DNA of 64,000 nt from a virus (taxonomy: Duplodnaviria; Caudoviricetes). Below the pieces are notes generated by a model. That model worked only from the letters and a program-made list of their open reading frames with translations, did not search any database and was not told the DNA's origin. The translations under genes and the position numbers were made by a program. Positions 3,001 to 64,000 of this stretch are shown here, piece by piece; the stretch's first letter is position 1, and every line of letters starts with the position of its first letter. The stretch lies in the IMG/VR virus record IMGVR_UViG_3300028591_000174, positions 1 through 64,000 of that record. One strand, 5' to 3'.

Positions 3001-3060
3001 ATCTACAATTTATCACTATTGTCTATATTTGTCTACATTTTTTTAGTAAAACATTTCTCC

Positions 3061-3561
3061 TTATATACTTCTAATACCACCAATATCAACATCAAAGTCT
3101 GGTATTGGATTTTCTGCTGAATACCACAGATGTAAGCAATACTTAGCGATGTTTACGTAATGCTCTTCATCCGGGAAGACCATAATGGATTTCTTGTCAG
3201 TACCAATAAAATCCTTTCTTACAAGTTGAATATCTTTATAATCAGGTATTCTGCTTTTACGACTGAATGAAACATGAAGCCATTCAGTACCTTTATATTT
3301 TGCAGGAGATACAATAACGTGAAGACCATTGAAATCGTATGATCTGATGTATTGGTCCGCGTCTTTGGAAAGAATGTTGTAAATGTTTATTTTGCTTTCT
3401 TGCCAGTATGAAGGTGGATTTGGAAAAAAATCAGCATCTGCTATTTTTACACGAGTTATATTTCCATCATCTGTTCCCATAGAAACATTGCCATCTATGC
3501 CGAAGGATTTTCTTGCTTTTTCAAGAACTTCGTTTTCTTTGTCTTTTGGAATTGTTTTCAT
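3061..3561 (-). CDS. conserved phage hypothetical protein
   Basis: C-terminal EWLHVSFSRKSRIPDYKDI...HYVNIAKYCLHLW motif typical of a widespread phage family. Confidence 0.7.
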   Translation of the reverse strand: MKTIPKDKENEVLEKARKSFGIDGNVSMGTDDGNITRVKIADADFFPNPPSYWQESKINIYNILSKDADQYIRSYDFNGLHVIVSPAKYKGTEWLHVSFSRKSRIPDYKDIQLVRKDFIGTDKKSIMVFPDEEHYVNIAKYCLHLWYSAENPIPDFDVDIGGIRSI

Positions 3562-3572
3562 TTTTTATTCTC

Positions 3573-4823
3573 CTATGCAGTCATTTCTGAAAGTATTTGA
3601 TCGAACAGTGCTTTGGCAAAGTTTGGTGGAACTGCATTTCCAATCTGTTTTATAACTTCTACCTTGGTGCCGGTGAATTTATAATCAGAAGGAAATCCAG
3701 TTGCTGCGGCCAGTTCGTTTGGCTGTAACATTCTGAATCCAAGTTCAATTCCGTCTGTAACTCCGCAGATAGCAAATCTATCTTTTGTTGTTATAGTTGG
3801 AAGAGGAACTCCAATTGGATGAGCAAAACCATTACCGTAATATTCAGTAATAAATGGCTCTACAACTCCATATCTGTTACTTGTATCAAGTGTAGGAACA
3901 GGCTCTGAGATTTTGTGGACTCTTCTGTCTCCACCGTTATACCTTGCTAAGAATGGCTGAATAAGCATATGATGAGCACCACTGCAAGAGATAGTTGAGA
4001 GTGGAATATCAAGTTTTTCAGCGGTAGAATTGCCATACAATTTTGCAATAAAAGGCTCTGCATAATCACCCCAGAACTCTCTGATACCATACTCAATACG
4101 TTTAAGAGTTGCATCAGCGAGAGGTTTCTTTCTGTCTTTTATAAGTTGACATGGAATTGACCAATCTATAATTTCACTTGCTGAATGCCATTTAGGAAGG
4201 AACATGTCTCCGTCTTTTACATTAGTAGGTTTTGGCCAGATAATCCTTTTACCGCAATCTTTTCTTACTGCCTGAATAAAAAGTCTTCGTCTTGATGTAG
4301 GTGCACCGTAATCAGCGGCGCAAAGAACTCTGTATGAAACTATATAATTTAAAGACTGAAGACATCTGATGAACATATTAAATGTCTGACCTTTCTTTTC
4401 AACTATTGTTTTACCGTCAGGTGTTAGAGGACCCCAGTTCTGAAACTCTGGAACGTTCTCAATGATGATTCTTTTTGGGTGAAGAATCTCTGCAAATCTA
4501 AGTACATCCCAAGCAGGTGCTCTCATTTGTTCATTCTTTGGTTTTCCACCACGAGCAACTGAATGATGAGTACAGGCTGGAGATGCCCAAAGTAAATCAG
4601 TGTCTACTGAAGCCTTGAGCGTTTCCGGGTTGATAGTCTGGACATCTTCAACGCGATGCTCAGCAAAAGGATAATTTGCAGCATGAGTTTCGATTGCTCT
4701 TTCCCAATGGTTTATAGCACTCATATTGATATCAAAGCCGAAATCATGTGCAGCAGAGATTAAGCCGGTAGATTCACCACCACCACCACAAAACATGTCT
4801 ATTATATTTAATTTGTTATTCAT
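3573..4823 (-). CDS. DNA (cytosine-5) methyltransferase
   Basis: Motif I DMFCGGGG, catalytic SPAC, ENV, RRRLF, motif X QIGNAVPP. Confidence 0.93.
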   Translation of the reverse strand: MNNKLNIIDMFCGGGGESTGLISAAHDFGFDINMSAINHWERAIETHAANYPFAEHRVEDVQTINPETLKASVDTDLLWASPACTHHSVARGGKPKNEQMRAPAWDVLRFAEILHPKRIIIENVPEFQNWGPLTPDGKTIVEKKGQTFNMFIRCLQSLNYIVSYRVLCAADYGAPTSRRRLFIQAVRKDCGKRIIWPKPTNVKDGDMFLPKWHSASEIIDWSIPCQLIKDRKKPLADATLKRIEYGIREFWGDYAEPFIAKLYGNSTAEKLDIPLSTISCSGAHHMLIQPFLARYNGGDRRVHKISEPVPTLDTSNRYGVVEPFITEYYGNGFAHPIGVPLPTITTKDRFAICGVTDGIELGFRMLQPNELAAATGFPSDYKFTGTKVEVIKQIGNAVPPNFAKALFDQILSEMTA

Positions 4824-5113
4824 TATAATCTCCCTGTAAACATAAACATTTCAGTTTTAAGATAGTACATCATATTTTTAAGCCACACTTCTGTACTCCA
4901 TAATTCTTCATCTATTTCTTCAAGTTCTTCTTTATCCATTTTTTTTTTCTCCTTCTTAAATATTTTCTTAAAGCACTTTGTGCAGATATGTCTTGTAATA
5001 TGGCTTGTTTTTGGTGAGTGATATTTATCCAATTCTGGAAGCATAACATCAAGGTGTTTACTTGTTACTGTGAACTCTGGATATTCTGCTCCACACAAAT
5101 CGCATACCCTCAT
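4823..5113 (-). CDS. hypothetical protein with CxxC...CxxC zinc ribbon
   Basis: CDLC...CTKC; stop/start overlap with the methylase. Confidence 0.6.
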   Translation of the reverse strand: MRVCDLCGAEYPEFTVTSKHLDVMLPELDKYHSPKTSHITRHICTKCFKKIFKKEKKKMDKEELEEIDEELWSTEVWLKNMMYYLKTEMFMFTGRL

Positions 5114-5116
5114 TCC

Positions 5117-5407
5117 TTACTCCTCTACTAATATTCCCAACAATTCAAATGGTTTTTTGCACATTGAAAGTTGTGAAATATATTCATAATTAACTTCGTG
5201 CTCATAGAGAACTAAGTCTGTGTAATCTGTCTGTTGTACAGAGATGACAAGTTTGAATCTTGAATGTAAACGGTCTGAAATGATATCTTTAAGTTGTGAG
5301 ATTTTAATTCTATCGTTGTACTTAAAGTATGCGTCTACTTCTGACCAATCCGAGTACTCTGAACCGCACCAGACTGCAGAATATAAAGTGAATTTAATTC
5401 CTTTCAT
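5117..5407 (-). CDS. hypothetical phage protein
   Basis: 96-aa ORF in operon arrangement. Confidence 0.55.
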   Translation of the reverse strand: MKGIKFTLYSAVWCGSEYSDWSEVDAYFKYNDRIKISQLKDIISDRLHSRFKLVISVQQTDYTDLVLYEHEVNYEYISQLSMCKKPFELLGILVEE

Positions 5408-5422
5408 AATTATCTCTTTATA

Positions 5423-5455
5423 AATGAACCTGTAAGGTGAACTTACAGGTTCATT
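5423..5455. terminator. intrinsic terminator-like hairpin
   Basis: 14-bp perfect stem aatgaacctgtaag / cttacaggttcatt with T-rich flanks, intergenic. Confidence 0.65.
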
Positions 5456-5480
5456 GTTTTTATTCTGAATTGTTTGTTAC

Positions 5481-5855
5481 TTAAAGATCTTCAAGTAACT
5501 TTTTAAGTTCATCTGCAGATTTGCCTTCAAGTTCTGCATCCTGTTTCTTTTCAAGGATTTCAAGAATCTTCTGCTTTTTAGCGGCATTTTCTGCCTTGGC
5601 TTCAGCAGCCTTCTTTTCTTCAACCTTCTGATTGAATACGTACCTAACGAGTTCAATCTTGCATTCAAGTACAGTGTTTTCAGTTTTCTTTTCGATAAGG
5701 CTTTCAACTTCAGAAGTCTTCTTTTCTTCCATCAAACACTTGTAGATGTAATCAAGATCGCGAAGGTTAAGGTCAAACAAATCTTCAGTTGTCATCTGCC
5801 CGCGATAGCTAAATCTGATTTTGTTTTTTGCAGCAAATTCAAACATCTTTTCCAT
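5481..5855 (-). CDS. conserved phage coiled-coil protein
   Basis: KIRFSYRGQMTTEDLFDL motif and charged coiled-coil C-terminus. Confidence 0.7.
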   Translation of the reverse strand: MEKMFEFAAKNKIRFSYRGQMTTEDLFDLNLRDLDYIYKCLMEEKKTSEVESLIEKKTENTVLECKIELVRYVFNQKVEEKKAAEAKAENAAKKQKILEILEKKQDAELEGKSADELKKLLEDL

Positions 5856-5865
5856 TTTTTTCTCC

Positions 5866-7908
5866 TTAAAATTTTATTTTGAGTAATCGCTCTGTTGAGC
5901 CAATTACCTTTACAACAACTTCATCACGCTTTGTAGCGGAGAATCCAACTCCAGAGAGCTGTTCGTCACAGTCTTCTACCCTCATTTTTGAACCAAGTGC
6001 TTCAAAGACACGCTTATGTTCAACAAGTTCTGACTTGAGATACTCGTTGAAGAATCCGTTTGGATTCTCATCATTCTTACAACCCTTGAGCATAAACATG
6101 TAATGTTTGTTACCATTGCCATTCTGTTCATCCCAATAGTTAGGTGAGTACATAATTACTGAGACAGGAACAAAACTGTTTGTTTTGATGCCCCAAATAT
6201 CCTTTGAAGCAGTTGTTGACGGAAGAAGTTCTTTAATTGAGAACTGTCCGTTCTCTAATGTCACAACAGCAACATTTACGGATTCGTTCTGCTTAAGCTC
6301 TTTGTCATAAGCAAACTTGTAGATTGTTCCGTCAAATTCAATTTCAGCAGAGAATCCTGAGCGACCACCACGATGACTAAAGTTGTGAACATAGAATCTG
6401 TATTCACCGTCTTTCATTGTATTTCGGGATGTCCAGAAGATGTTTTCAACCGCAACTTTTCTTTCAGGGTAAATGATATCTACATCAAGCATACCGTTTG
6501 TAAGAAGAGACTTCCTGCTGCCAAAGTAGATCTCGTTAGTACCTACTTCTGTGACTTCGATACAGTGAGCATCGAAGTCATTGTGATTGTCAAAGTTGTC
6601 ATTCCACTGAATAGAGAAGCGAAGGTCACCTGTAACATTACCACCGGCATTCTTTACATTCTCTTTAATTAAAGAGTCTGCAATATTGCCTTTGTATGCC
6701 CAAGAGAATCCGTTGTTCCATTTGAACATTGACTTTGAGCCTTTGTTCTTTGGTGCGATAAGAGAGCAGAGATTCTTTTCCAATCTGCCATCAACGTAGA
6801 CTTCAACTTCTCTTGCAGTTGGCAGTACATTCTGAATGAACTTTTCTGGAGTAATCTCTTCAGTCTTACTGAACTTATTTGGATTTGTTTTTGCTTCAGA
6901 CTTAAGTTCACCGAATACATCCAGGTTCTTTTCTTTTGCAACATCGCGGTTAGAAAACAGAATGTTATTCACTGTAATGTCATCAAGAGTAGCAAATCTT
7001 CTTGGAAGTGAATCAGAGTATCCAAGTTCAGTAATTTTTTTCTGAGCTTCTTCAACCATCTTCTGAGTAAAGATTGCCTTTGGTCTTTTGTAGTTGGTTG
7101 GTGCTACTACTTTTTCGTAGCGAGTAACAGCAGTGTCCAAATCAACTCCATCATTAATATCAATCAGAATAGTTCCGATTGAATGATTGCGGATTTTACC
7201 AATGGCAACTCCTGCTTCAGCAGCCTTTTCCCATGCAAAGAGATTCTTTTCAGTTTCATCAAGTTTGCCGAAGTTTTTCTTGTATTCACGCAATTTCTTG
7301 AGATTTGATTCCCATTCATTGCCACGATATAAAGAGTTTGAAGCGATAAGTTCAAGAACTGTATCGATGCTTTCAAGGCTGAGCTCTGAGAGTGAACGAT
7401 AGAAGACATTGCGAATATCACGCAACTGTGACTTCTTTTCTTCAACACTCTGAGTACCCATCACAATGTACTTTGATGGAACTTTCAGATAGAAATGCTG
7501 CCAAGTTCTGACTGTACCATTTTCGTCAATTTCGCGATTTTCAAGGATTCCGGCAGAGCCTTCCCTTGAGAAGAAAAAGTCCTGAATTGATTTAGACTTG
7601 ATGTATGCGGCCATTGCGTTTGCAACTGTCTGATATGTGTCATCATAAGTTTCAACATCCCAGATAGTTTCAATAACACCGTCTTTAATTCCGACAACAT
7701 TTCCAATTGATTTGATAAAGTGTCTACAAGCAGAACAGTCATGCTCTGTACGTTTGCGGAAGATAGGATTTGTTCCTTCTGGATAACTTGCAAGATAGTG
7801 CTCATACAATTTATCCTTATCTACATCTACAACAAACAGGTCATTATACTTAGCCTGCATTTCTTCAAAATGTTTAATAATTGAATCTCTAAACTTTACA
7901 AAACTCAT
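5866..7908 (-). CDS. large conserved phage protein with C-terminal YfaP/DUF2135-like domain
   Basis: 680 aa; DLRFSIQW...DFDAHC...LDVD...VENIFW...GEYRFYVHNF pattern; N-terminal HDCSACRHF. Confidence 0.7.
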   Translation of the reverse strand: MSFVKFRDSIIKHFEEMQAKYNDLFVVDVDKDKLYEHYLASYPEGTNPIFRKRTEHDCSACRHFIKSIGNVVGIKDGVIETIWDVETYDDTYQTVANAMAAYIKSKSIQDFFFSREGSAGILENREIDENGTVRTWQHFYLKVPSKYIVMGTQSVEEKKSQLRDIRNVFYRSLSELSLESIDTVLELIASNSLYRGNEWESNLKKLREYKKNFGKLDETEKNLFAWEKAAEAGVAIGKIRNHSIGTILIDINDGVDLDTAVTRYEKVVAPTNYKRPKAIFTQKMVEEAQKKITELGYSDSLPRRFATLDDITVNNILFSNRDVAKEKNLDVFGELKSEAKTNPNKFSKTEEITPEKFIQNVLPTAREVEVYVDGRLEKNLCSLIAPKNKGSKSMFKWNNGFSWAYKGNIADSLIKENVKNAGGNVTGDLRFSIQWNDNFDNHNDFDAHCIEVTEVGTNEIYFGSRKSLLTNGMLDVDIIYPERKVAVENIFWTSRNTMKDGEYRFYVHNFSHRGGRSGFSAEIEFDGTIYKFAYDKELKQNESVNVAVVTLENGQFSIKELLPSTTASKDIWGIKTNSFVPVSVIMYSPNYWDEQNGNGNKHYMFMLKGCKNDENPNGFFNEYLKSELVEHKRVFEALGSKMRVEDCDEQLSGVGFSATKRDEVVVKVIGSTERLLKIKF

Positions 7909-51652: not shown

Positions 51653-52040
51653 TTTATATGTAAATGATTTGATCGGAGTACGTTTCAAAAATCATGGCCG
51701 TTCGATTAATGAAGGCTTTGATTGTTATGGACTTGCGATTGAAGTTTCAAAAAGGCTTGGACATACGCTTCCTGATTTATGGTATCAAAGAGCGTGTCCA
51801 GAAACATTCTCAACCCACGTTGATGATGTTTATAACCAGATGAGTTCTATGGTTGAAGAAACTGAAGAACAGAATCTTGGAAACCTGATTTTATTTGGTG
51901 ATGACAAAGGAAGAATGGTTCATATAGGAGTCATTCTTGAAGAAGGTGTATTTATTCATGCTGATAATGGTGGTGTAAGGGTAACTGCACTTGATAATTA
52001 TTACAGAAAAATATGGAAGGTGTACAAATGGCTACAGTAA
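51645..52040 (+). CDS. NlpC/P60 tail tip protein (gpK-like)
   Basis: GRS...GFDCYGL, HIGVIL...FIHA. Confidence 0.88.
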   Translation: MADLYVNDLIGVRFKNHGRSINEGFDCYGLAIEVSKRLGHTLPDLWYQRACPETFSTHVDDVYNQMSSMVEETEEQNLGNLILFGDDKGRMVHIGVILEEGVFIHADNGGVRVTALDNYYRKIWKVYKWLQ

Positions 52041-55000
52041 AGTTCTTGAATAATATTTTTTCAAATGATGTAAAAACTTTCTCTGTAAACGAGGGTACAT
52101 CTATTGATGATATTCTTAAACAAAATACAAACGATACTGTTTACGATGACGTTCTTGTTGAATGTTATGATCTTGAAACTGGAAAAACATATTATGCTGC
52201 TATCTGTGAAGATAGAGAAACATTAAACGCAGTTGTTCAGGTAAACGGAAAAGATGTAAGCCTTGATTATGAAGTAAAAGTAAATGACATTGTAGAAATT
52301 GTTATTACACCTTCTGGTGGTAAAATAGGTGCTCAGATTGCAGGTGCTATAGCTGGAATATTCATTGGTGCTATAGCAATTGCTTCTATTGCAGTTACTT
52401 GGGGTGCAAGTACTGGTTTAGTTGGTTTCCTTGCTTTTGTTGGTGGTGTCGGTGGAGGTATTGCCGGTGCTAAAATTGCAGGTGATGCCTGGGATATGAA
52501 ACATCAAGGAAATGGGTCATCAACTAAAGGTAAGGACTCTGAAAGACTTCCTGATGTTCGTGGTGCTACAAATCAGGTATTAACTGACCAAGCATTTCCT
52601 GCCGTATTTGGCAAACATTTGGCTGCACCATTTATAATTGGTTCTCCGTACAACGTTATTACAGGAAATCGTGGACAGGAAAATTATATTCATGTTCTTT
52701 ATGAGATTGGATATGCTCCATTAAGAATTACAGATATCAAACTTGGTGACCAGTATCTTGCTCATAATAAAAGGTGGTCTGGCAATCAGTGCATGAAAAA
52801 TATCTGGTCCGGCAAACTAGAAGGTATTGATGAAGGAACGAACCATTATGATATGGAGTACTTTCAGCAGAATACAAGCATTCCTTTATCATCAAGACCT
52901 CAAATTACAGCAAGCCAAATGATTGCTGCAGGTTGGGATGTTCCAGATGACGATTCAATTTATACTGTATATTCCTCTTCATATTCAAATCAGAATGGAA
53001 CAAAAACTGTTCTTGTAACTCCTATTCTTAACAATGGGACTGTTTTATCACCTGCTCAGCTTGAAACAGATGCAAATAACATTCTTTCGGACCAATCTGC
53101 AACACATGATGTTCTTCTTAACACCTTTACAGGTACTGACTCTATTGGACAAGCAGATGAATATGCAGAAGAACTACACGCTGCTCAAGGAAGTTATTAT
53201 GGATTAAGTGGAGATATTGTAAACACTTGGAAAAATAATGATGTATCAGTTGAGATATTACAGCAGATTCCAGGTGAAAATGTGAATTACGGAGACGTAT
53301 ATCCACACGCAAGAATTCAAAATGACATCAATGCTGATGTATTGTTTATTGCTGACGGTTCTCTTGAAGATATTGATTCTGGTAAAAATATTTCATATAA
53401 GGGGGTTGGTCTTAAGGATGGCTTAAGAAATAATCCTATATACTTTACAGAACAGTATCCTAAATCTGCTACTGTAGAGCTTGATTTTGCACAGGGTCTA
53501 TATAAATCAAGAAGTGAGACTTCAGATGAAAAGAGTGAAGTAAAGAATTATAAGATACCGATGTGGATTGGTCTTCAGTGGCGTATTTACTCTGATGATA
53601 ATCCTATATGTGACGGAAATACAGCAGGTGATGATGTTCCGTTCCCAACATGGAATCAGGAAACAAAGTCTTACAATCCAGTTACATATAAAGGAAAGAC
53701 TGGTGTTATCAGAGGCTGGAACTCTTTTGATTCTATCAATAATACTGTAAATGCAACTGCTTATACAGCAGAAGATCGTTACCTTGATATTGCTGCACAT
53801 ACTGGAAATAACCTCAAGAATGAAAAAACAAGGTCTGGTCAAACTGAAACTACAGTTACGATAACTGGAAGTATATCATATTTACCAGCTCCTTATGATA
53901 CTAATCCTTACAAATTAACAAATCTCACACTTGCCGTTTCTTCTTCTTATAGTGATGTTATAAAACTTCAGGCTTATGATAATTCTTCATGGATAACAGT
54001 TCTTGAATTACCAATCGGCGGTTCAAGTACATCTGTTCCAAGTACGTCTGTTCCTAATAACAAATGGCGTATAAAGATTGGAGAGTGGACATCAGGTGAG
54101 TTCAGTTTAACAGGTTCAACAAAAACTATCCCAATTTCTGGATATGTATATTCTGCAGATATAAATAATAACTGGCTTAATTCTAAAGCATTTAATCTTC
54201 AGTCTTTGGGTGGAGACAATGAAGATACAGATGGTATTAATGAAATCAGATGTATAACATCTATTGATTTTGTTGAATGGTCAAGGGCAAATCTTCTTTC
54301 TGAAGATGAAAGAGAATCGGAATATGTTGAAGATATTCTTGCAAATAAAATGAGATCTTATTTTTATGACGGAACAAACTCAACCAAGTCTATAGAAGTT
54401 CGCGTTGTAAGAATTTCTCCATGTTATCTTGATGAAGTTAAATCTACAAAAGAAAAATCTGCATTTAAATTTAATGATATATTTACCTGGAAAACACTGT
54501 CATCAACAATGCTTGATGGCGATGCTCTTATTAACAAGAGTGCTATCATTCAGAAAAGACCTTTGTCAGAAGAGTTAATGAGAGGACATTGTATTTTGTC
54601 ATTAAAGGCAAAAACTGATACTGTAGACCAGTTATCAAACACAATCAGAAAACTCTCTTGTATCGCAGAGTCTTTTGCACCTTATTATGATAAAGAACAA
54701 AAGAAGTGGTTCCCGGAAAATGTTGTAAAGCAGAAGCGTTATATTCGTTATGATGCAGGAAACAATGTATGGAATGATATCACAGAACAGGAATATTACC
54801 AAGACCGACAGAATAGACAGACTGGAGTTAGGTCCAAATGTATTGCTAATGGTAACAACTTTGTTTCTCAGATTATTGATGTAATCAATACAAATGCTCA
54901 TAAAGATGAGAAAGGACGTATTTTTATTCCAAATGATGATATGGACAATGGACAGTATAAGACTGGCTGTGATGGTACATTGAAATATTGTAATAATAAT

Positions 55001-57085
55001 GTAGCGTCAATATTTATGCTCGCAGGTATTGGACCTCACCTTGGAAAAGATGCTTTAGGATATACTCAGAGTCACTTTGATGTAAATGGTATTGGTGATT
55101 TTAATATGCTCTCAATGTCAAAATGGCATAGTTGGGCTGAAAGGGTCACAGATGGTTCTACTTATGCTTCAGATGGCTATCATTATAATCATAAAGGCGT
55201 AAGAATTCATCATAACAAAGGTGATTTAGTTGAGGTATATTTTGCTGCAAACGCCTATGTTTATAATCAGGAAACACTTGAGTCAATCTTTGCTAATATC
55301 TCAATTGCAGGCCGTTCGGTTTATACGAAAGATAATAAAGGCAGAATTACAGTTGTTATTGATAAACCAGAAAAATATCCTGTAGCACTTATCAATCAGC
55401 AGAATACTCTGAAGTCTTCTTACACAATTTCATATGCAGAGTCACCATCTGGAATCCAGGTTTCTTTCCCGGATGAAGATGATGGTTATGAAACAAATCA
55501 GCTTTATTGTATGGCCGATGGTGAAGACGAGAAAAACCCATTCGGAGCAATTGAACCTTATGGATTTAAGTTCGTTACAAACAATATACAGTTATGGTCT
55601 TTAGGACGATACATTCTGGCAAATAGAATCCTCAATAAAGAAGTTGTAACAAAGCAGCTTGGAATTGAGGGTGCTTCTATTACTCTCGGCGATCTTGTAC
55701 TTGTACAGGACGATACAATGCTTATAGGCACTGATAATGGTGGTAGAATCACTCAATTGATTGAGAATGAACAGGGTATTTACGGTTTTGTAATAGATAA
55801 TATGTATCACTTTACTGGTGAGACTGAAATCGTTGATGGAGTTGAAAAGAGTTCTCAGGGCGTTGTTGTAATGCAACCATCTCAGTATAAAGAGTCGAGA
55901 ATTATCACATTACGATTGATGAAAGATGGTGGAACTGCATATGTAAATGGAGTTCTTTATACAATGACAAAAGGAATGACAAATACAGTTTTATTTGATA
56001 TTCCTATCTCAAAAAATGCTGATAATCAAGACGGTTCAGATTATTATATCTACAAGCCTGAAGCTGGAAATATGGTTGGCTTTGGAAAAATTGGAAAGGT
56101 TACTTCAACTTATAGAGTAATAAAGATTAAGGCTTCAGAAAAACGTACTTATGATTTTACTCTTATGAAGTATCAAGAGGACTTGTATAACTACGGTGCT
56201 CAGTTACCTTCTTTCCAGAACCATATGACAATTCCAGATAGAAGCGGCGAGAACTCATTCTCATTGTCAAATAATGTAAATCAGAATGATTTGACAAAAA
56301 GTCTCAATGAACTCTCAGATCAGGTTCAACAGCAGATAGGAACAATAACAAGTTATGAATGCTCTTTGTCTATGTCATCAATTGGCTCTGCAGTTTTAGG
56401 CAATGTATTCAAAGATGGTTCAATTGTTGAAGGAACCCTTTATTATAAAGATTTTTATGGAACTTCTGGTCAGCAACCTACAACAGAAGGTGGCACAGGA
56501 ACTGTAATTGATGGTATAATTAACATACCTGCGGTTCAAAACGCTGATAAACATATTGTAAATATCTACTCAGATGCTCAGTATGAAAACATTGTTTGTT
56601 CAAGTTTTGTTTCGTATGGTGCTACTGGAAGTGGTTCTTCTTCTTACTGGCTTATATGTGATGCAAGTTCTGTTAATAAAGATGTAAACGGAAACTTTAA
56701 TCCAAGTTCTATTAATCTTGTCGGAATGACACAGAGTGGAACTTCTGCTCCAACTACATATTCAGGAAGAATTGGAATTGCAGTTGATACAGGCAGCGGA
56801 TATGGAAATGAAACTACTTATGATGATTATTCAAAGACGTTTACAATTCCTGCTAACACTAAGAAGATAAGATGCCGTCTTTATCTTGCCGGTGGAACTT
56901 CTGTTAAACTCGATGAAGAGATTGTAACAGTAACAAGTGACGGCGGATATCAGGATTACAAGTTTGCAGTTGGGGCCTTCGACCTTGATGATACTGCACT
57001 CAGAAATCTTGATTGGCAGGAAACACCACCACCTACAACAGAACAGGCACCTTGCTTATATATGGCTACTAAGTGGATAAACTAG
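52013..57085 (+). CDS. central tail tip / host specificity protein (gpI-gpJ-like)
   Basis: 1690 aa; ubiquitin-like N-terminus, TM/Gly-rich segment, PAVFGKH, GDLVLVQDD; probable start ATG 52028. Confidence 0.8.
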   Translation: MEGVQMATVKFLNNIFSNDVKTFSVNEGTSIDDILKQNTNDTVYDDVLVECYDLETGKTYYAAICEDRETLNAVVQVNGKDVSLDYEVKVNDIVEIVITPSGGKIGAQIAGAIAGIFIGAIAIASIAVTWGASTGLVGFLAFVGGVGGGIAGAKIAGDAWDMKHQGNGSSTKGKDSERLPDVRGATNQVLTDQAFPAVFGKHLAAPFIIGSPYNVITGNRGQENYIHVLYEIGYAPLRITDIKLGDQYLAHNKRWSGNQCMKNIWSGKLEGIDEGTNHYDMEYFQQNTSIPLSSRPQITASQMIAAGWDVPDDDSIYTVYSSSYSNQNGTKTVLVTPILNNGTVLSPAQLETDANNILSDQSATHDVLLNTFTGTDSIGQADEYAEELHAAQGSYYGLSGDIVNTWKNNDVSVEILQQIPGENVNYGDVYPHARIQNDINADVLFIADGSLEDIDSGKNISYKGVGLKDGLRNNPIYFTEQYPKSATVELDFAQGLYKSRSETSDEKSEVKNYKIPMWIGLQWRIYSDDNPICDGNTAGDDVPFPTWNQETKSYNPVTYKGKTGVIRGWNSFDSINNTVNATAYTAEDRYLDIAAHTGNNLKNEKTRSGQTETTVTITGSISYLPAPYDTNPYKLTNLTLAVSSSYSDVIKLQAYDNSSWITVLELPIGGSSTSVPSTSVPNNKWRIKIGEWTSGEFSLTGSTKTIPISGYVYSADINNNWLNSKAFNLQSLGGDNEDTDGINEIRCITSIDFVEWSRANLLSEDERESEYVEDILANKMRSYFYDGTNSTKSIEVRVVRISPCYLDEVKSTKEKSAFKFNDIFTWKTLSSTMLDGDALINKSAIIQKRPLSEELMRGHCILSLKAKTDTVDQLSNTIRKLSCIAESFAPYYDKEQKKWFPENVVKQKRYIRYDAGNNVWNDITEQEYYQDRQNRQTGVRSKCIANGNNFVSQIIDVINTNAHKDEKGRIFIPNDDMDNGQYKTGCDGTLKYCNNNVASIFMLAGIGPHLGKDALGYTQSHFDVNGIGDFNMLSMSKWHSWAERVTDGSTYASDGYHYNHKGVRIHHNKGDLVEVYFAANAYVYNQETLESIFANISIAGRSVYTKDNKGRITVVIDKPEKYPVALINQQNTLKSSYTISYAESPSGIQVSFPDEDDGYETNQLYCMADGEDEKNPFGAIEPYGFKFVTNNIQLWSLGRYILANRILNKEVVTKQLGIEGASITLGDLVLVQDDTMLIGTDNGGRITQLIENEQGIYGFVIDNMYHFTGETEIVDGVEKSSQGVVVMQPSQYKESRIITLRLMKDGGTAYVNGVLYTMTKGMTNTVLFDIPISKNADNQDGSDYYIYKPEAGNMVGFGKIGKVTSTYRVIKIKASEKRTYDFTLMKYQEDLYNYGAQLPSFQNHMTIPDRSGENSFSLSNNVNQNDLTKSLNELSDQVQQQIGTITSYECSLSMSSIGSAVLGNVFKDGSIVEGTLYYKDFYGTSGQQPTTEGGTGTVIDGIINIPAVQNADKHIVNIYSDAQYENIVCSSFVSYGATGSGSSSYWLICDASSVNKDVNGNFNPSSINLVGMTQSGTSAPTTYSGRIGIAVDTGSGYGNETTYDDYSKTFTIPANTKKIRCRLYLAGGTSVKLDEEIVTVTSDGGYQDYKFAVGAFDLDDTALRNLDWQETPPPTTEQAPCLYMATKWIN

Positions 57086-57094
57086 GAGGATAAT

Positions 57095-60000
57095 ATGGCT
57101 TTACCAGAAGGTTATGCTATTTCAGCACTTACAGGAAAAAAAGGAGCAGACGGAACATCTGCTAAGTTTATAGAAATAGAAGCACCAAACGGACTTGTTT
57201 TCAAAAACGGAAGTCCTAATAGTTTGACACTTAATGCCATTGCTATAGGCTTTACTCCAAGTTCTTATAAGTGGTATAAAGACGGTACTGTAATCAGCGG
57301 TGCAACTTCACAGACTTACAATGCAACTACAGCAGGAGTATATAAAGTTGTCTGTGGAGACTATTCAGATATCACAACAGTAATTGCAGTGTCTGACGGA
57401 CAAGATGGTACATCACCTTATTCCTGCTCTGTAAGTAACGAAAACTTTACAGTAGCAACTGGCACAGATTTAAAACCTCTCTCTGCGACAACTTACAGCG
57501 TAAAGTTTCAAGCATATAAAGGAAGCACACAACTTTCTCCTATTGCTCCGTCAGCAGCTATTGCAAGTGGTAAGTTTAAAGTATCTACTCCAAATGCTTC
57601 TGGATTCACTGTTGCACAAAGCACAGCAGGAACATTGACATTTAAGACTGCAACTGGCACTGCTATATCTGCAAACCTTACTGTATCTGTTACTGTAACT
57701 TATGATAACGGTTCGACAGAAACAAAAGTAATTACTATCTCTGCAAGTAAAACTGGAGCAAAAGGTGAAGATGCTTCTCAGATAGGAGAGAACTTACTTC
57801 ACGATTCAAAACTTTTTGGTTCTGTATATGGTTCTTCATATCCATATTATAAATACATTGATAATGGTGCTCATACAGCAAACGCTTTCAATGGATTTAC
57901 ACAGACTTACTGTAACAATTCTAGTGGAACTTCAACAAAAGATTTTTTAGCTTGGAAAAACATCAAAGGTTTTACTCTTGGTGATAAATATACATTAAGT
58001 TTTTGGGCTAAAGGAAGTGGAAAATTTTATACTTATTGGTATGGTGATTCTGGTTACGTTCAGACTAAGAGAATTGCATCTTCTGACGGTCAGGCAGCAG
58101 GCAATTTTGGTGATGGCTCAACTACATTTACTCTTACATCAGAATGGAAGCAGTATTGGGTTACTTGGCAACTAAATACAACAGGAAATAACACAGTATC
58201 TAAGATTATTCTTTTTAGAGCATACGCAGATGCACAAGTTTATATTGCAGGCCCTAAATTTGAGAAAGGAGAAACAGCAACTGCTTGGGTTCCTCATGTT
58301 GATGAATATAAAGGAGAAACTGGCAATACAGGAACTAAAACATTTTTCTCTGATTACGCAAGAACATGGACTAACACAAACTGGAATACTTATAAGACAG
58401 CAGGTTATGCAACTACATGGAATAACAGTACCGTTGAAGGAATGCGTGTTGGCGATATATTAGTCATAACTGCAACCTTATCTGAGCAGGGAAATATTAT
58501 TGGTACCGTCTATACTCAGATAACTTCAGTGCCAAGTTCAAAAGTAGATGGATATTACAAGATTGGTTGTACTACTCTTTACGGTATGGTAGGACAACGT
58601 GGTCAAACAGGTGCAACAGGTACTCGTGGAACTTTAACTTTTACAGGTACAGAAATCTATAATATTAGAGCAACTGCTGTTGTATATACACTTACAACTG
58701 CGAGTACAGGGATTACTAGCACTAATATGAATATTCTTGTAGGTGACAGATACATTAACTCTCTGACTGGCGATGTATGGAAGTGTACTACGGCAGGCAC
58801 TGCTTCAACTGCTAAATGGACTTATGAGGGTAGACAGGCTAAGGATAGTGATAGTTCTAACCAATTCAGATTCTTTGGAGAAGGAACTAAAACAAAATAT
58901 AACACTGGCGGAACAAATATATCACAGACAGAAGTTACTGGTGAGGGTCCTTTTGGCGGTAATACTTCCCTATTGAAGATTACTCGTCCTGCTAATGCTG
59001 CCTCAAATGGCAGAGTAACACCATATTCAAAAACCATAAAACTTGAAGCTGGTGTAAGTTATCGTTATGCCTGCTACGCAAAAAAAACAAACGATGGCTT
59101 TATTAATTATTTTGGTTGTAGAGGTTGGGAACAGGTTTCTGAAACAGTAAAAAACAGTCAGATATTAGCATTAAATGGTAGCGAAATAAACAGTGGATAT
59201 TTTGTAAGTTCTAAAAACTTCGGAACAGTAGGTAGATGGTATCTTGTAATCGGATATGTAACCGCAAACGGTGTAACTACAGCACCTGCAAATGATGCAG
59301 GTGTTTATGATATGGTAACTAAACAGAGGGTTGCAAACTGTATTAACTACCAGTTTAAAAATATTACTGAGTTTACTCACAATGGAACTTTGATTGAGTA
59401 TACTGAAAGCTCTTCAACTCCAACTGTTGAGAATACTACATATATCTATGATATTCGCTTTGATAAAATGGATGGAACTCAGCCTACCTTAAATGAACTT
59501 TTGAATCTTGACAGTGAAGCAAAGGGAAAAGGAACGTGGGCTAGTGGTACAAATTATATTATAGGCGATATTGTTTTTTATAGTACAAATGGGTGTTCAT
59601 ATATCTGTAAATCAAGTCATACGTCTTCTAGTTCTATTGTACCAACAAACACAACTTATTGGGATAAAATTGCAGATAAAGGTGAAAAAGGTGATAGAGG
59701 TTTCTCATCACGCACAATTGCATTTAGAGTAAACTATTCGGCTTTTTCTACAGCAAATGACGGAGAAGTTTATGTATGTGGTTATAATGCAAATGGTGCA
59801 GAAGCAGATACATATGGCTATGTAATTATAAACGGAACTACATATTATGCTAAGGGAATGTTGAATAGTAACTGTGCTATGAATGGTTATATGGCTATTC
59901 AGAAAAGCGGTGCAACAAGTTCTGGATCTCCAGCAACGCCAGTTTATGTTTTTGAAGATGGCTCAAACACTTGGTATCAAGTTGCAAATGGTTTAACTAC

Positions 60001-62293
60001 AGTTGTTAAAAGTGCAATTTCTTCAAAAGCAGATTGGATTGTATTGGCTAAAGTCCACTCTCAAACAGGAGAAGGGAAAGTTTCTCTTGAACCAATGACT
60101 CCTTGTTTACTTTCAGATATAAACAGTGTTATTGAAATGAAGTATGAAGGAATAGTCGCAGCAGTCACAAATTATACAAGTGCACAAATTACTCCATACA
60201 AAATCACAGGAAGTAACGGTTCGTTTAGTAAAACAGCATTAACTGCAAGATATGTTGAGCGTGGTGCATTGGTTCTTAATACAAATGCAGTTACTCCAAC
60301 ATCAAGTACTGCCCAGGCTAGAATGATGTTGTTTGACGGAACAACTTGGACCGAAATTAGTTCTAGTGATGCTCGTTATAATGACGCTATATTGTTGTGT
60401 GCCGGTGCACTTCCTTCTCTTGCTGGATATTATTATACACTCGGATTGGCAACTCCAAACATTTGCGGAACTTATATTGATACACTCACAACTAACAGAG
60501 CGTTTATCAATGAAGCGATGATTAACCTTATCCGTGCTTATGATATCAACTTCAAGAACTCTGTTTCAAGTTATAAGGATTCTGGATATGTCGCAGGAGA
60601 TCTTGCTATATCTATGGGTAAGAATCCTAAAAACACTTCTGATACAGAAAATAACTTTATAATACAATCGTACAAAGGTGATGTAGTTAAATCTGGAAAT
60701 TCTGTTCCAATTTGGAAAAAAGAGTTCTTTACAAAAAAAACTGACAATGGATTAATAGATTTATTTATTAATGGAAAATTAAATTTAGCAGGTGATTTAG
60801 AAATAAGTTCTCCTTCGTTGTACGTTGGAGTTGAAGCAGAACCAGTCTGTAAATGTTCTGGGTCTGGCACAGCTGTATCTAACTACAACTGTGCTCAAGT
60901 GTTTTATAATGACAAAATATACTTATTTCAAAGTTCAACTTCCAGCACTGTAATGGTGTCTGTTTGTAATTACAAAGGAAGTAATACACCAAGTTTTACA
61001 CAACTTGCAGAAATTAGCAGCAAAGGTCTTGTTTATGATGCAACAGTTTACAAAAACAATATCTATGTCTCTTTTAGTACAGGTGTATATAGATTTAATG
61101 TTTCTAATAACTCATTTACAACAATAACAACTACTTATAAACCTGTTATAATGAACATTGTAAATAATTTATTAAATCTAACCACTGACAATAATATATT
61201 TGCTTTCTATAATGGTTCTTCTGTTATTACAAAAACATCAAATGGCAATTGTTTGTGGTTATGTAATTTTACCCAAGATTTATTAGTTGCTTGTAATGGA
61301 AGTTTGTCACCTTCTGGCACTGCATATGCAACAAATAGCCTATCATTTTATAATCCTGATTTTACAGAACTTGGAAATCAACAAATTACTGGTAAAACAG
61401 TTACGAAAATTGATGGAACAACAACGACTATTTCATCAGCCTGTGGGCTATTTGCTTATAATGGCGTTTTAATAACTTGTGCATTAAATTTAGGAATCGT
61501 AATAAGTTATGACTGTGGACAAACGTGGAAGCAGGTTTTCTCACGGACAATACTTTCATTTAAGGGCTATGCGACTCAAAATATTATTATATTACATAAT
61601 GATGCCGAAGTAATTTATAGTTTAGATAATGGTGTAAATTGGAATGACTTTAATTTACGTTATAACAGTACATACAGAATGGGTAAAGCATTCTTAGCAC
61701 AAACAACCTTATATAAAGATATATTAGTGCCAGTTGGCTTTGACAATAGATTGAGTTTTTGTAGAATTAGACAAAGAAATATAGTAGAACAAACGGCTAT
61801 ATCAATTATTGCCAGCAGTATAAAAGATATTAACAGACCATTTGGGTTATCAATGTATGATGCTTCTATAGAGCTAATAAAGTTTGATAAAACTTATAAT
61901 GTTGGAGACATTATTTATAATGGTGCTAACACTATTGGTAATTTTTACAAATGCATACAATCAAGTAAAGCAGATAAATTATTTGACCCTGCTTATTGGC
62001 AAAACGATATTGGTGACAGTGGTTATATAGTCTTTTCGAACGGTTTAAAGATACAGTGGATTAGGACTACTCACACTAATTCTACAAAAAGCCTTGCATT
62101 TGATTTATCATTCAGTAACAAAAATTATTTTGTTTTTTGTCAAAGCGAACGAACTGACAATGGATACCCAAATACGTTTGTAGGTGGTGTTTATAATAAA
62201 CAAAATGATAACAGAACATTTACTTATGCAACTTCATATAATTCGCAAAGCGAAAGTGTTACTAATGACATTTTTTTTGCTATAGGATACTAA
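57095..62293 (+). CDS. long tail fibre / receptor-binding protein
   Basis: Ig-like, carbohydrate-binding-like and short collagen-like segments; BNR-like SxDxGxxW motifs; C-terminal NGLKIQW...FAIGY (gp53-like) domain. Confidence 0.88.
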   Translation: MALPEGYAISALTGKKGADGTSAKFIEIEAPNGLVFKNGSPNSLTLNAIAIGFTPSSYKWYKDGTVISGATSQTYNATTAGVYKVVCGDYSDITTVIAVSDGQDGTSPYSCSVSNENFTVATGTDLKPLSATTYSVKFQAYKGSTQLSPIAPSAAIASGKFKVSTPNASGFTVAQSTAGTLTFKTATGTAISANLTVSVTVTYDNGSTETKVITISASKTGAKGEDASQIGENLLHDSKLFGSVYGSSYPYYKYIDNGAHTANAFNGFTQTYCNNSSGTSTKDFLAWKNIKGFTLGDKYTLSFWAKGSGKFYTYWYGDSGYVQTKRIASSDGQAAGNFGDGSTTFTLTSEWKQYWVTWQLNTTGNNTVSKIILFRAYADAQVYIAGPKFEKGETATAWVPHVDEYKGETGNTGTKTFFSDYARTWTNTNWNTYKTAGYATTWNNSTVEGMRVGDILVITATLSEQGNIIGTVYTQITSVPSSKVDGYYKIGCTTLYGMVGQRGQTGATGTRGTLTFTGTEIYNIRATAVVYTLTTASTGITSTNMNILVGDRYINSLTGDVWKCTTAGTASTAKWTYEGRQAKDSDSSNQFRFFGEGTKTKYNTGGTNISQTEVTGEGPFGGNTSLLKITRPANAASNGRVTPYSKTIKLEAGVSYRYACYAKKTNDGFINYFGCRGWEQVSETVKNSQILALNGSEINSGYFVSSKNFGTVGRWYLVIGYVTANGVTTAPANDAGVYDMVTKQRVANCINYQFKNITEFTHNGTLIEYTESSSTPTVENTTYIYDIRFDKMDGTQPTLNELLNLDSEAKGKGTWASGTNYIIGDIVFYSTNGCSYICKSSHTSSSSIVPTNTTYWDKIADKGEKGDRGFSSRTIAFRVNYSAFSTANDGEVYVCGYNANGAEADTYGYVIINGTTYYAKGMLNSNCAMNGYMAIQKSGATSSGSPATPVYVFEDGSNTWYQVANGLTTVVKSAISSKADWIVLAKVHSQTGEGKVSLEPMTPCLLSDINSVIEMKYEGIVAAVTNYTSAQITPYKITGSNGSFSKTALTARYVERGALVLNTNAVTPTSSTAQARMMLFDGTTWTEISSSDARYNDAILLCAGALPSLAGYYYTLGLATPNICGTYIDTLTTNRAFINEAMINLIRAYDINFKNSVSSYKDSGYVAGDLAISMGKNPKNTSDTENNFIIQSYKGDVVKSGNSVPIWKKEFFTKKTDNGLIDLFINGKLNLAGDLEISSPSLYVGVEAEPVCKCSGSGTAVSNYNCAQVFYNDKIYLFQSSTSSTVMVSVCNYKGSNTPSFTQLAEISSKGLVYDATVYKNNIYVSFSTGVYRFNVSNNSFTTITTTYKPVIMNIVNNLLNLTTDNNIFAFYNGSSVITKTSNGNCLWLCNFTQDLLVACNGSLSPSGTAYATNSLSFYNPDFTELGNQQITGKTVTKIDGTTTTISSACGLFAYNGVLITCALNLGIVISYDCGQTWKQVFSRTILSFKGYATQNIIILHNDAEVIYSLDNGVNWNDFNLRYNSTYRMGKAFLAQTTLYKDILVPVGFDNRLSFCRIRQRNIVEQTAISIIASSIKDINRPFGLSMYDASIELIKFDKTYNVGDIIYNGANTIGNFYKCIQSSKADKLFDPAYWQNDIGDSGYIVFSNGLKIQWIRTTHTNSTKSLAFDLSFSNKNYFVFCQSERTDNGYPNTFVGGVYNKQNDNRTFTYATSYNSQSESVTNDIFFAIGY

Positions 62294-62296
62294 ACC

Positions 62297-62512
62297 AACG
62301 GTTTACATATACAATGGGGACAGAAGCCTGGATATACAAAACATATTACTTTTCCTATTGCATTCTCTAGTGGCTGTATGTACTTTAACTTTATAGCATA
62401 TCGTACTTCAGCTACAGAGAATGGCTGGCATTATTACAATAATCTCACAAGGACAGATGTTTATGTAATGCAGAATGATGAAACTGTATTATGGATTGCT
62501 ATAGGTTATTAA
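62297..62512 (+). CDS. silent tail-fibre C-terminal cassette B
   Basis: No start codon; NGLHIQWGQKPGY...LWIAIGY*. Confidence 0.85.
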   Translation, partial: NGLHIQWGQKPGYTKHITFPIAFSSGCMYFNFIAYRTSATENGWHYYNNLTRTDVYVMQNDETVLWIAIGY

Positions 62513-62754
62513 TAGCCAATTGCAAAAAAACTATACGAACCTCCATTTGTAATTGCTTTAAACTGATTTGTATTATTTCCACTCAGTCTTGCTCCAACTT
62601 CCGATTTTGACATTGTACCAGCAGAATTATCATAATAGCCAAATATAAGACAGGAGTCTGGACTTGTAAAATTAAGTGGTAAATATAAATCAGTTTTTAC
62701 ACCTCCACTAACAAAGCCATCAGCATATTTTATCCATTGTATCTTTAAACCGTT
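62509..62754 (-). CDS. silent tail-fibre C-terminal cassette C
   Basis: NGLKIQWIKYADG...SFFAIGY*; stop overlaps that of cassette B (TTAA). Confidence 0.85.
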   Translation of the reverse strand, partial: NGLKIQWIKYADGFVSGGVKTDLYLPLNFTSPDSCLIFGYYDNSAGTMSKSEVGARLSGNNTNQFKAITNGGSYSFFAIGY

Positions 62755-62810
62755 CGATAACTTATAATAATTATTAAGTCGTGCTATAATCTATTTAGGT
62801 GGAGGTATGT

Positions 62811-63191
62811 ATGTATTTCGGAAAAATCAAAAATACTGATGATGAATGGGGCTTTGATGTTTTTATTTCTAACTTTGAATCTTATGTAACGGTCGATGAT
62901 TCAGAACATCTAAGCATTGTAAATCAAGCAAACAGTGAAGGTAAATTAATCAAAGGAGATTCTGACGGAAATCCTATTCTGGTAAATCCACCAGAACCGA
63001 CTGATTATGAAAAAGCACAGAGCCGAATATCTGAACTTGAACAATTTCTTACTGAAACAGACTGGTATGCAATCAGATTTGCAGATACAGGCGAAGAAAT
63101 CCCTGTTGAAATAAAAAATAACAGACAGGAAGCAAGAGACGAAATATCAAGATTACGAACAGAGTATCCAGAGCCTAATCAAAACAACTGA
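62811..63191 (+). CDS. tail fibre assembly chaperone (XkdW/Tfa-like)
   Basis: ELEQFLTETDWY...IP.EIK..RQEARDEI pattern; ggagg RBS; extended -10 TGCTATAAT at 62782-62790. Confidence 0.7.
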   Translation: MYFGKIKNTDDEWGFDVFISNFESYVTVDDSEHLSIVNQANSEGKLIKGDSDGNPILVNPPEPTDYEKAQSRISELEQFLTETDWYAIRFADTGEEIPVEIKNNRQEARDEISRLRTEYPEPNQNN

Positions 63192-63406
63192 ACGGTTTGC
63201 GTATACAATGGGGAAAAGATTCTGGTTCGAACAGAACAGTTAATTTTTCATTAAGTTTTACTCAAACGCCTATAATTGTCTGCGTTCCACACGCAGGAGA
63301 AAGCTATTCACCTGGATACTTTTCTTTCGGATATAACATCACTAATTCAAGTTTTACTGCTTACAAAGCTGGTGCAAGTATAGACTGGATTGCTATAGGA
63401 TATTAG
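63191..63406 (+). CDS. silent tail-fibre C-terminal cassette D
   Basis: NGLRIQWGKDSG...IDWIAIGY*. Confidence 0.85.
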   Translation, partial: NGLRIQWGKDSGSNRTVNFSLSFTQTPIIVCVPHAGESYSPGYFSFGYNITNSSFTAYKAGASIDWIAIGY

Positions 63407-63657
63407 TAACCAATTGCAATCCAAGACATTTGTTTTTTTGACAAACCAGAGACTCCACAATAAAAACCGCTAACAGATATACTGTCAATAAAAGTCCAAG
63501 AAGATAAGTAATTTACATATAATGTATTTGATGATGTGTCAGATTCAATTACTGCTGTTGATACAAATGGAGGAGTAGTAAAATTCAATGCAAAGGAAAC
63601 AGATTTTCTTCCTGCACTTTTATCAAGTTGCTTTCCCCATTGTATCTTTAAACCGTT
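63403..63657 (-). CDS. silent tail-fibre C-terminal cassette E
   Basis: NGLKIQWGKQLDK...MSWIAIGY*. Confidence 0.85.
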   Translation of the reverse strand, partial: NGLKIQWGKQLDKSAGRKSVSFALNFTTPPFVSTAVIESDTSSNTLYVNYLSSWTFIDSISVSGFYCGVSGLSKKQMSWIAIGY

Positions 63658-63661
63658 CAGT

Positions 63662-63874
63662 TTAATAACCTATTAAAATAACATCTATTTTGTTTGAACC
63701 ATAAGAACATCTTATATTAATATGTCTTGCATCTTGATGTTCTACCGCAACGTGATAACCGTTTTGAGTGTGAGATTCTGATATTATATAAGAACTAACA
63801 CTTGAAAAAGACAATGGAAGTTCTATGCTAGTGCCATTACTTAAATTATAAAGCCACTGTATTTTTAAACCGTT
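63662..63874 (-). CDS. silent tail-fibre C-terminal cassette F
   Basis: NGLKIQWLYNLSNG...DVILIGY*; 71 codons open. Confidence 0.8.
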   Translation of the reverse strand, partial: NGLKIQWLYNLSNGTSIELPLSFSSVSSYIISESHTQNGYHVAVEHQDARHINIRCSYGSNKIDVILIGY

Positions 63875-63922
63875 CCTTAATATTTTAATATCTTTATACT
63901 ATTATTAGAGGTATTAAAAAAT

Positions 63923-64000
63923 ATGAATTATGCTTACATCAGAGTTTCAACAGACAAACAAACAGTACAGAATCAAAGGCTTGCAATTAAAGAATATGCA
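63923..64000 (+). CDS. serine recombinase / DNA invertase (5' end, truncated)
   Basis: MNYAYIRVSTDKQTVQNQRLAIKEYA: YxRVSTxxQ catalytic motif. Confidence 0.9.
   Translation, partial: MNYAYIRVSTDKQTVQNQRLAIKEYA

Follow-up and report, generated by a model that had tools for sequence, protein, structure and literature searches.

A probable multiple-inversion tail-fibre switch with six lectin-like tips in a gut phage whose host is most likely Treponema

When a phage tail-fibre gene is followed by several further copies of its own last domain, all start-less, lying in both orientations and each preceded by the same short sequence, the question arises as to whether the phage can exchange one fibre tip for another by DNA inversion. 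Such a locus is found between positions 62039 and 63874 of the stretch analysed here. This stretch, called below the window, consists of bases 1-64000 of the 77,549-nucleotide (nt) IMG/VR record IMGVR_UViG_3300028591_000174 (CheckV completeness 74%); the rest of the record is labelled L007, and a window coordinate equals the L007 coordinate + 60999. A sheep-gut metagenome is the sole public run holding the full window, and bovine and other gut runs hold parts of it. The initial annotation had read the locus as a six-cassette shufflon driven by a serine invertase. This reading is supported by the anatomy of the locus, by the domain identity of the cassettes, by the recurrence of this design in no fewer than 16 related loci and by purifying selection on cassettes that are silent as assembled. 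As detailed below, we consider it likely that the locus serves a rumen or sheep-gut phage as a host-range switch based on multiple inversions, the most likely host being Treponema.

Recombination sites and fibre-tip cassettes

The 21-nt motif AACGGTTTnnnnATACArTGG (AACGGTTTNNNNATACARTGG) has exactly six mismatch-free matches in the window, against 0.00 in shuffled sequences, and no further copy of it is present in the other 13.5 kb of the record. Three of the six sites, named A to F, are on each strand (Table 1), and at each of them a complete C-terminal domain has its first codon. Site A lies in the reading frame of the fibre gene of 1732 amino acids (aa), and the C-terminal domain does start at 62039 with the motif NGLxIQW, as the initial annotation had it. 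The conservation of the sites goes beyond what the protein requires. When three loci are considered, the Asn codon is AAC and the Gly codon is GGT at 22 out of 22 sites, while the usage of these codons in the fibre genes of the phage is only 32% and 42%, respectively; the sites are thus conserved as DNA. Similarity between them ends abruptly right after the TGG. To the left, the flanks differ because each one is the local upstream DNA, i.e. the fibre end, a cassette end, one of the ends of the assembly gene described below, or the invertase leader. There is nevertheless a weak but significant dyad symmetry of the left flanks with the right half, which is best when the site is laid out as 12 + AA + 12 (5.5 matching positions out of 12 around the AA core versus 3.3 in the null, z = 6.7). 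Site A would probably be, on this basis, a 26-bp sequence going from 62027 to 62052, with its AA core at 62039-62040, and the cut would fall at this central dinucleotide. The same 26-bp architecture is that of the hix sites, in which two imperfect 12-bp half-sites flank a 2-bp core (PMC3798978).

From sites A to F, the frames are open for 84, 71, 81, 71, 84 and 70 codons before a stop is met; at the local base composition, the chance of finding an open frame of such length is 0.001-0.004 per cassette. Every cassette starts with NGL(K/H/R)IQW and ends with (A/L)IGY-stop, and elsewhere the pairwise identity is only ~23-31%. With six exact sites and as many open frames, the succession of five additional start-less cassettes (B+, C-, D+, E-, F-) sharing a core and an IGY ending, which had been put forward from a first inspection, holds. 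So do the tail-to-tail overlapping stops: the B/C and D/E pairs overlap by 4 nt each (62509-62512 and 63403-63406), the TATTAATA/TATTAGTA motif reading Tyr-stop on either strand. These two junctions are embedded in near-palindromes, GGTTATTAATAGCC (62505-62516) and GGATATTAGTAACC (63399-63410), which specify Gly-Tyr-stop on both strands. The NCBI annotation treats such cassettes as independent small genes; we rejected this possibility, there being neither a start codon nor a ribosome-binding site at the start of the domain.

Table 1. Position of the sites, cassettes and genes of the fibre locus
Feature	Coordinates	Strand	Size	Remarks
Site A	62039-62059	+	21 nt	Expression site; in frame inside the fibre gene
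Site B	62297-62317	+	21 nt	
Site C	62734-62754	-	21 nt	Inverted repeat I3, 93% complementary to site A
Site D	63191-63211	+	21 nt	
Site E	63637-63657	-	21 nt	Inverted repeat I7, 95% complementary to site A
Site F	63854-63874	-	21 nt	Invertase-proximal; inverted repeat I6, 92% complementary to site A
Cassette A	62039-62293	+	84 aa + stop	Expressed in the assembly
Cassette B	62297-62512	+	71 aa + stop	Silent; same orientation as A
Cassette C	62509-62754	-	81 aa + stop	Silent; inverted relative to A, tail-to-tail with B
Cassette D	63191-63406	+	71 aa + stop	Silent
Cassette E	63403-63657	-	84 aa + stop	Silent; tail-to-tail with D
Cassette F	63662-63874	-	70 aa + stop	Silent
Serine DNA invertase	63923-64522 of the record (63923-64000 inside the window)	+	199 aa	
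Tail-fibre-assembly-like gene	62811-63191	+	126 aa	Between C and D; Shine-Dalgarno GGTGGAGG upstream
Tail-fibre gene, whole	57095-62293	+	1732 aa	Follows the J-like gene; C-terminus is Gp53-like_C
Constant part of the fibre	57095-62038	+		Hoc-like Ig domain at the N-terminus
J-like central tail-fibre gene	52013-57085		1690 aa	phrog_31 'central tail fiber J'

Five out of six cassettes match the Pfam family Gp53-like_C (PF21882) over the whole profile, with a best E-value of 1.1e-9; cassette A scores 35 bits (cut-off 24.9) over profile positions 4-84 of 84. A profile made from the six cassettes matches gp53, the solved tail fibre of phage AP22 from Acinetobacter (4mtm, 4e-4), in an alignment which extends from GLIIQWG to ISWIAIGY-COOH and so includes the first and the last motifs, and it also matches the R1 pyocin fibre. 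The structure prediction suggested in the initial annotation was carried out for cassette A with AlphaFold, using 48 cassettes from this locus and related ones, and it gave the fold of a foot domain, that is a six-strand beta domain with a pLDDT confidence score of 80. The best Foldseek matches of this model (6cl5, 6ct8, 6cl6, 6cxb and 4mtm; TMq 0.63-0.70, probability 1.00) are the C-terminal tips of the R1 and R2 pyocin fibres and AP22 gp53, H-type lectins coming next. Taken together, the profile and fold matches indicate that each cassette is one complete gp53-like, or R-pyocin-type, lectin-like 'foot' domain of a sugar-binding type. According to the model, the cassette corresponds to the whole foot domain, whose first strand (NGLxIQW) is where the site is located. 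Different tips would presumably bind different receptors.

One component had escaped the initial annotation, namely the open reading frame (ORF) of 126 codons which separates cassettes C and D within the invertible region. Its product matches two families of tail fibre assembly proteins, phrog_4912 (1.1e-8) and phrog_188 (3.6e-7), and has no Pfam or NCBIfam match. On the grounds of homology and position it can be designated as a tail fibre assembly protein of the Tfa/U type and a putative chaperone. Its TGA stop codon overlaps site D; a fusion of this ORF with cassette D was considered and discarded, since the frames differ and a stop codon intervenes in both relatives.

The invertase, its relatives and the probable host

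A serine recombinase gene had been reported to begin at 63923, 48 nt beyond site F as it turns out, and the identity of its product is clear from its matches to the Pfam Resolvase family (PF00239, 3e-35) and to phrog_125 'DNA invertase' (3e-49). The YIRVSTDKQ motif of the protein aligns with the catalytic-serine motif of Gin, and Gin of phage Mu is also its best solved relative (4m6f, E-value 3.5e-13). The best curated family is that of the Mpi 'master DNA invertase' (NCBIfam NF009949; 235.5 bits, E-value 4.5e-70, profile positions 1-197 of 203), the score being under the equivalog cut-off of 272 bits, which makes the enzyme a relative of the Mpi family and not an equivalog. Among deposited phages the nearest invertase is that of Bacteroides phage B124-14 (48% identity), whose gene is located among the early genes, away from the fibre genes; the identity drops to 32-34% with the Pin-like invertases of Escherichia coli phages. 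Enterobacterial invertases are therefore not the closest relatives, and by sequence comparison the enzyme is nearer to the Mpi family than to Gin, Cin or Min.

Nearly all of the closest genomic relatives, which share 64-80% identity with the enzyme, come from genomes or metagenome-assembled genomes (MAGs) of Treponema from ruminants and other guts. When 401 Treponemataceae genomes were searched at the DNA level with the Treponema bryantii locus described below as query, the invertase gene alone was matched, in 106 of them; this search did not return T. bryantii itself. From these sequence relationships, the host of the phage is most likely a rumen Treponema. In four Treponema genomes with related invertase loci, no Fis orthologue was found over the cut-off, E. 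coli being the sole control to pass it. If the host is indeed a Treponema, the classical Fis-enhancer mechanism is thus probably not applicable, and the switch would operate independently of Fis.

Several of the related loci are informative as to the organization of the array. The one carried by a T. bryantii prophage (L008; IMGVR_UViG_2623620477_000002, 2647-6600) possesses 12 sites and 12 gp53-like cassettes, in the order [+ + + - - - / assembly gene / + + + - - - / invertase], i.e. in two mirror-like clusters. Its invertase (WP_074643486.1) is 79% identical to that of the window and, like its assembly protein, matches an NCBI record of T. bryantii exactly; single cassettes of it are labelled by NCBI as free-standing 'gp53-like domain-containing protein'. 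The order is [+ - - / assembly gene / +] in L159, up to the contig end, and [+ - - - - - / invertase] in L017, which has six cassettes; ten other loci carry one to three cassettes. The same fibre end is also found in L161 (4749-5351), with one gp53-like tip followed, 15 nt past the fibre stop codon, by the orthologue of the assembly-like gene; the fetched stretch is without extra cassettes or invertase. Such a layout is likely to be the ancestral simple state, or else it is a deletion product. In the loci with gp53-like cassettes that were measured, the last minus-strand site is ~33-52 nt ahead of the invertase start.

Other members of the same invertase clade show variations on this layout. 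In six loci (L010, L012, L083, L096, L101 and L102) the invertase-proximal site is 30-70 nt before the start codon and its inverted partner is 0.5-3 kb upstream; there, the site sequences differ (e.g. AAAAACGGGCGAATTAATT and AAACGACCGMTTTGAATGTACAAGG) and the cassettes belong to families other than gp53-like, an AACG core being shared among the inverted repeats of the clade. Two MAG contigs, L079 and L080 (invertases 79-80% identical), stop within 83 nt and 1.95 kb of the invertase gene on its upstream side, in the place expected for a shufflon; this fits assembly breaks in repeated or heterogeneous shufflon DNA, and constitutes no evidence for inversion.

The comparison with T. bryantii gives access to the selection exerted on the cassettes. 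Cassette A is 90% identical to cassette 12 of L008, which is silent, inverted and adjacent to the invertase, though the fibre shafts of the two phages differ. The synonymous divergence (dS) between them is 0.77 and the non-synonymous divergence (dN) 0.056, hence a dN/dS ratio of 0.07. Cassette B, silent in both assemblies, has 73% identity with cassette 2 of L008 and a dN/dS of 0.13. With ratios of 0.07-0.13, cassettes that are silent as assembled are under selection at the protein level. For sequences without a start codon, this makes sense only if they are occasionally expressed after having been joined to a fibre gene.

Proposed mechanism and alternative explanations

From the above analysis, the locus is probably an active, Min-like multi-inversion switch, as far as can be judged from sequence, and we infer that inversion does occur in this phage. 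The mechanism could be as follows. The fibre ends in a foot domain of ~80 aa, the DNA for the first strand of which doubles as the conserved right half of the recombination site. Five more complete foot domains, start-less, are stored downstream in both orientations, each behind the same site. The 199-aa invertase would pair two sites of opposite orientation, cut them at the central dinucleotide and invert the intervening DNA; the right half-site would keep its cassette and the left half-site its upstream context. Because the right half-sites would retain their cassettes, every inversion product would have the fibre in frame with one of the complete tips.

To determine the range of arrangements accessible in this manner, the locus was treated as a series of blocks between crossover points and a breadth-first search over inversions was carried out. 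It appeared by computation that 320 arrangements are reachable in at most six steps and that all six tips are expressible by inversions alone. If the assembly gene is to end in the forward direction, one inversion is needed for tip C, two for B, E and F, and three for D. The assembly gene forms a block between two left half-sites, which makes it flippable and implies that it must sit between a minus and a plus site; this placement is seen in the three shufflon loci, out of three, that hold the gene. No series of inversions brings tip D, E or F to the fibre without flipping the assembly gene as well. Were no inversion ever to span this gene, the computed number of states would fall to 16, and only tips A to C would be accessible.

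Several observations weigh against a working six-tip switch. No alternative junction of this phage was found in the assembled contigs (Logan) of four runs, contigs being known to drop minority forms, and a contig from the run that is probably the source covers the whole locus, arranged as in the window. A search for fibre-end junctions gave none among IMG/VR viral contigs and, among metagenome contigs, only the distant L159; at the protein level, looking for versions of this fibre that end in a different one of the six tips returned only itself, one relative at 54% and isolated cassettes. As for the components, the strong conservation of the right half-site is not matched by the left half-sites, which are poorly conserved; the enzyme, as said above, falls short of the Mpi equivalog cut-off; and we know of no accessory factor or enhancer for it. 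Finally, the assembly gene is read in the direction of the fibre gene, i.e. on the same strand, in all three shufflon loci holding it (chance 1/8), and this constant orientation could mean that the spanning inversions needed by tips D to F are rare or selected against.

A few oddities turned up in the course of these searches. The last 380 aa of the constant part of the fibre have no IMG/VR match. Other short contig pieces gave 88-95% matches to the sites themselves and come from related phages. In one run, a joint '1060 to 1524, opposite strands' (depth 3.7, with a 33-nt side) does not correspond to any predicted recombinant junction and was not counted because it is on the near-palindromic cassette-end motif. 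Another joint, 'skip 1049 to 2855' in the source run, belongs to a different relative of lower depth, and two contigs of one MAG, L084 and L085, are collinear duplicates instead of isomers.

The orientation of the assembly gene leads to the alternative that best stands up to the data, which we regard as possible though doubtful: only A, B and C would be exchanged in practice, D to F constituting a rarely used reserve, because an inversion spanning the assembly gene would flip it out of the late operon and lead to defective fibres. The identical orientation of this gene and of the fibre in each of the three loci goes in that direction, as do its proximity to the fibre gene in L161, as if the two were co-translated, and the restriction to 16 states and three tips computed above. 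Yet three identical orientations can arise by chance, with the probability already given, and a second spanning inversion would restore the original one. A TATAAT box upstream of the assembly gene, kept in two of three loci, might moreover free its expression from orientation; promoter and terminator scans at the locus gave chance level only. Lastly, the T. bryantii counterpart of cassette A is the final one of the downstream cluster, which means that cassettes have changed clusters.

A second alternative is that the array is mainly a landing pad, where co-infecting phages or prophages would exchange cassettes horizontally at the 21-nt site, its arrangement being effectively fixed. Exchange between genomes does appear to take place. 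Three phages (IMG/VR contigs L013, L015 and L019) are 92-98% identical in the fibre shaft and in the invertase and carry unrelated, non-homologous cassette sets in the 2.5 kb before the invertase; the limits of their similarity coincide with the first and the last site, an indication that phages exchange cassettes where these sites recombine. Likewise, a bovine-gut contig 99.5% identical to the window over the last 1060 nt of the constant part of the fibre splits from it exactly after site A and continues with a seventh tip type. Cassette E, too, recurs in near-identical copies in other runs from gut metagenomes, where its neighbours are different. However, this explanation leaves unaccounted for the two orientations, the missing start codons, the tail-to-tail packing and the intact invertase found in every locus, and the two processes, exchange from one genome to another and inversion inside a single one, are compatible with each other; as a replacement for the inversion switch, we consider it very unlikely. 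Still less probable is a decayed or frozen shufflon, an inherited architecture the enzyme or sites of which would no longer work: the lack of isomers in the contigs and databases searched and the degenerate left half-sites would agree with it, but the ORF of the invertase is of full length and includes the catalytic-serine motif, the six sites are exact, the silent cassettes are all open and those with T. bryantii orthologues (A and B) have the low dN/dS values reported above.

Beyond the array itself, two ORFs in the part of the record outside the window drew attention. Right behind the invertase gene, a 322-aa ORF (L007:3526-4494, i.e. 64525-65493 of the record) has a weak match to family-2 glycosyltransferases (3.9e-5) and a weak match to Imm43 too. 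Further on, a 509-aa protein (L007:9818-11347, i.e. 70817-72346 of the record) is composed of about six repeats of ~70 aa each, with recurring ...YTTDGS/YSTDGS... motifs.

Comparison with known inversion systems and significance

The principle of the multiple-inversion switch proposed here is known since Mu, P1 and p15B. The system that comes nearest to it is Min of the plasmid prophage p15B, which, in so far as it is described through PMC6109161 (Sandmeier et al. 1992), combines a serine invertase, six mix sites and a constant fibre part. Common to both are a constant 5' part, alternative 3' parts in both orientations, sites at the boundary between constant and variable parts, an adjacent serine invertase and the number of six sites. 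The present locus differs from Min by its enzyme, only ~32-34% identical to the enterobacterial Pin-type and with Mpi as best family, by the sequence of its site, by the single shared assembly gene at its centre, by its variable parts limited to single gp53-like domains of 70-84 aa, and by a host genus of spirochaetes that probably lacks Fis.

With Gin of Mu, Cin of P1 and Pin of e14, the locus shares the exchange of the C-terminus of a fibre by a serine invertase. The gp53-like family is moreover common to it and to e14, in which StfE2, the product obtained after inversion, has a gp53-like domain at its C-terminus (PMC12529663). The three classical systems have two sites, two states, an assembly gene of their own for each variable part and a Fis-dependent enhancer in the invertase gene, a feature also described for Hin (PMC3798978); here, in contrast, six sites and 320 possible states go with one assembly gene, and Fis is probably lacking. 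The analogy with Gin, Cin and Min drawn in the initial annotation therefore stands for the working principle and not for family membership: with an enzyme nearer to Mpi and a likely host genus that is probably devoid of Fis, the likeness is one of mechanism.

Mpi of Bacteroides fragilis, the multiple promoter invertase, flips promoters scattered round the chromosome (PMC10403206). Like it, the invertase of the window is a small serine invertase with many sites, and NF009949 is its closest curated family; unlike those of Mpi, its sites are clustered, lie in coding sequence, serve to exchange protein domains and belong to a phage. Exchange of a receptor-binding C-terminus by inversions at short repeated sites is also a property of the PilV shufflon of R64 and of the Rin shufflon of Bifidobacterium prophages, a multi-cassette system based on a tyrosine recombinase (PMC6109161). 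Since Rin and Rci are tyrosine recombinases and the enzyme here is of the serine type, 'shufflon' is to be taken as a descriptive term only. On a more general level, tail fibres and assembly genes rank with the targets most often affected by programmed inversion in bacteria, Mpi-family recombinases are enriched in their vicinity, and host-range switching by inversion of the 3' end of tail-fibre genes is widespread (PMC9881135).

The locus stands apart by its enzyme branch, its site, its host clade within the Spirochaetota, which is probably Fis-less, and the one assembly gene at its centre; for the T. bryantii relative, the size of the array, with its 12 cassettes, can be added. A literature search found no paper combining Treponema, prophage, tail fibre and invertase. 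One can go further and propose, as an unlikely but not negligible extension, that a separate clade of Mpi-related, Fis-free Treponema-phage invertases drives unusually large shufflons in coding sequence, with a single shared assembly gene which is itself flippable, so that the choice of the tip and the expression of the chaperone would be coupled. If this were true, some of the progeny would have immature fibres, and the array would be a combined specificity and on/off switch.

To conclude, almost nothing is known of the phages of rumen and gut spirochaetes, and the locus offers a testable handle on their host range, since a single fibre could draw on six interchangeable lectin-like tips here and on twelve in the prophage carried by T. 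bryantii, a cultivable species. Multiple inversion of the Min type would thereby be extended to Mpi-related serine invertases in hosts that probably lack Fis, which bears on the way such enzymes may be restricted to inversion without a classical enhancer.

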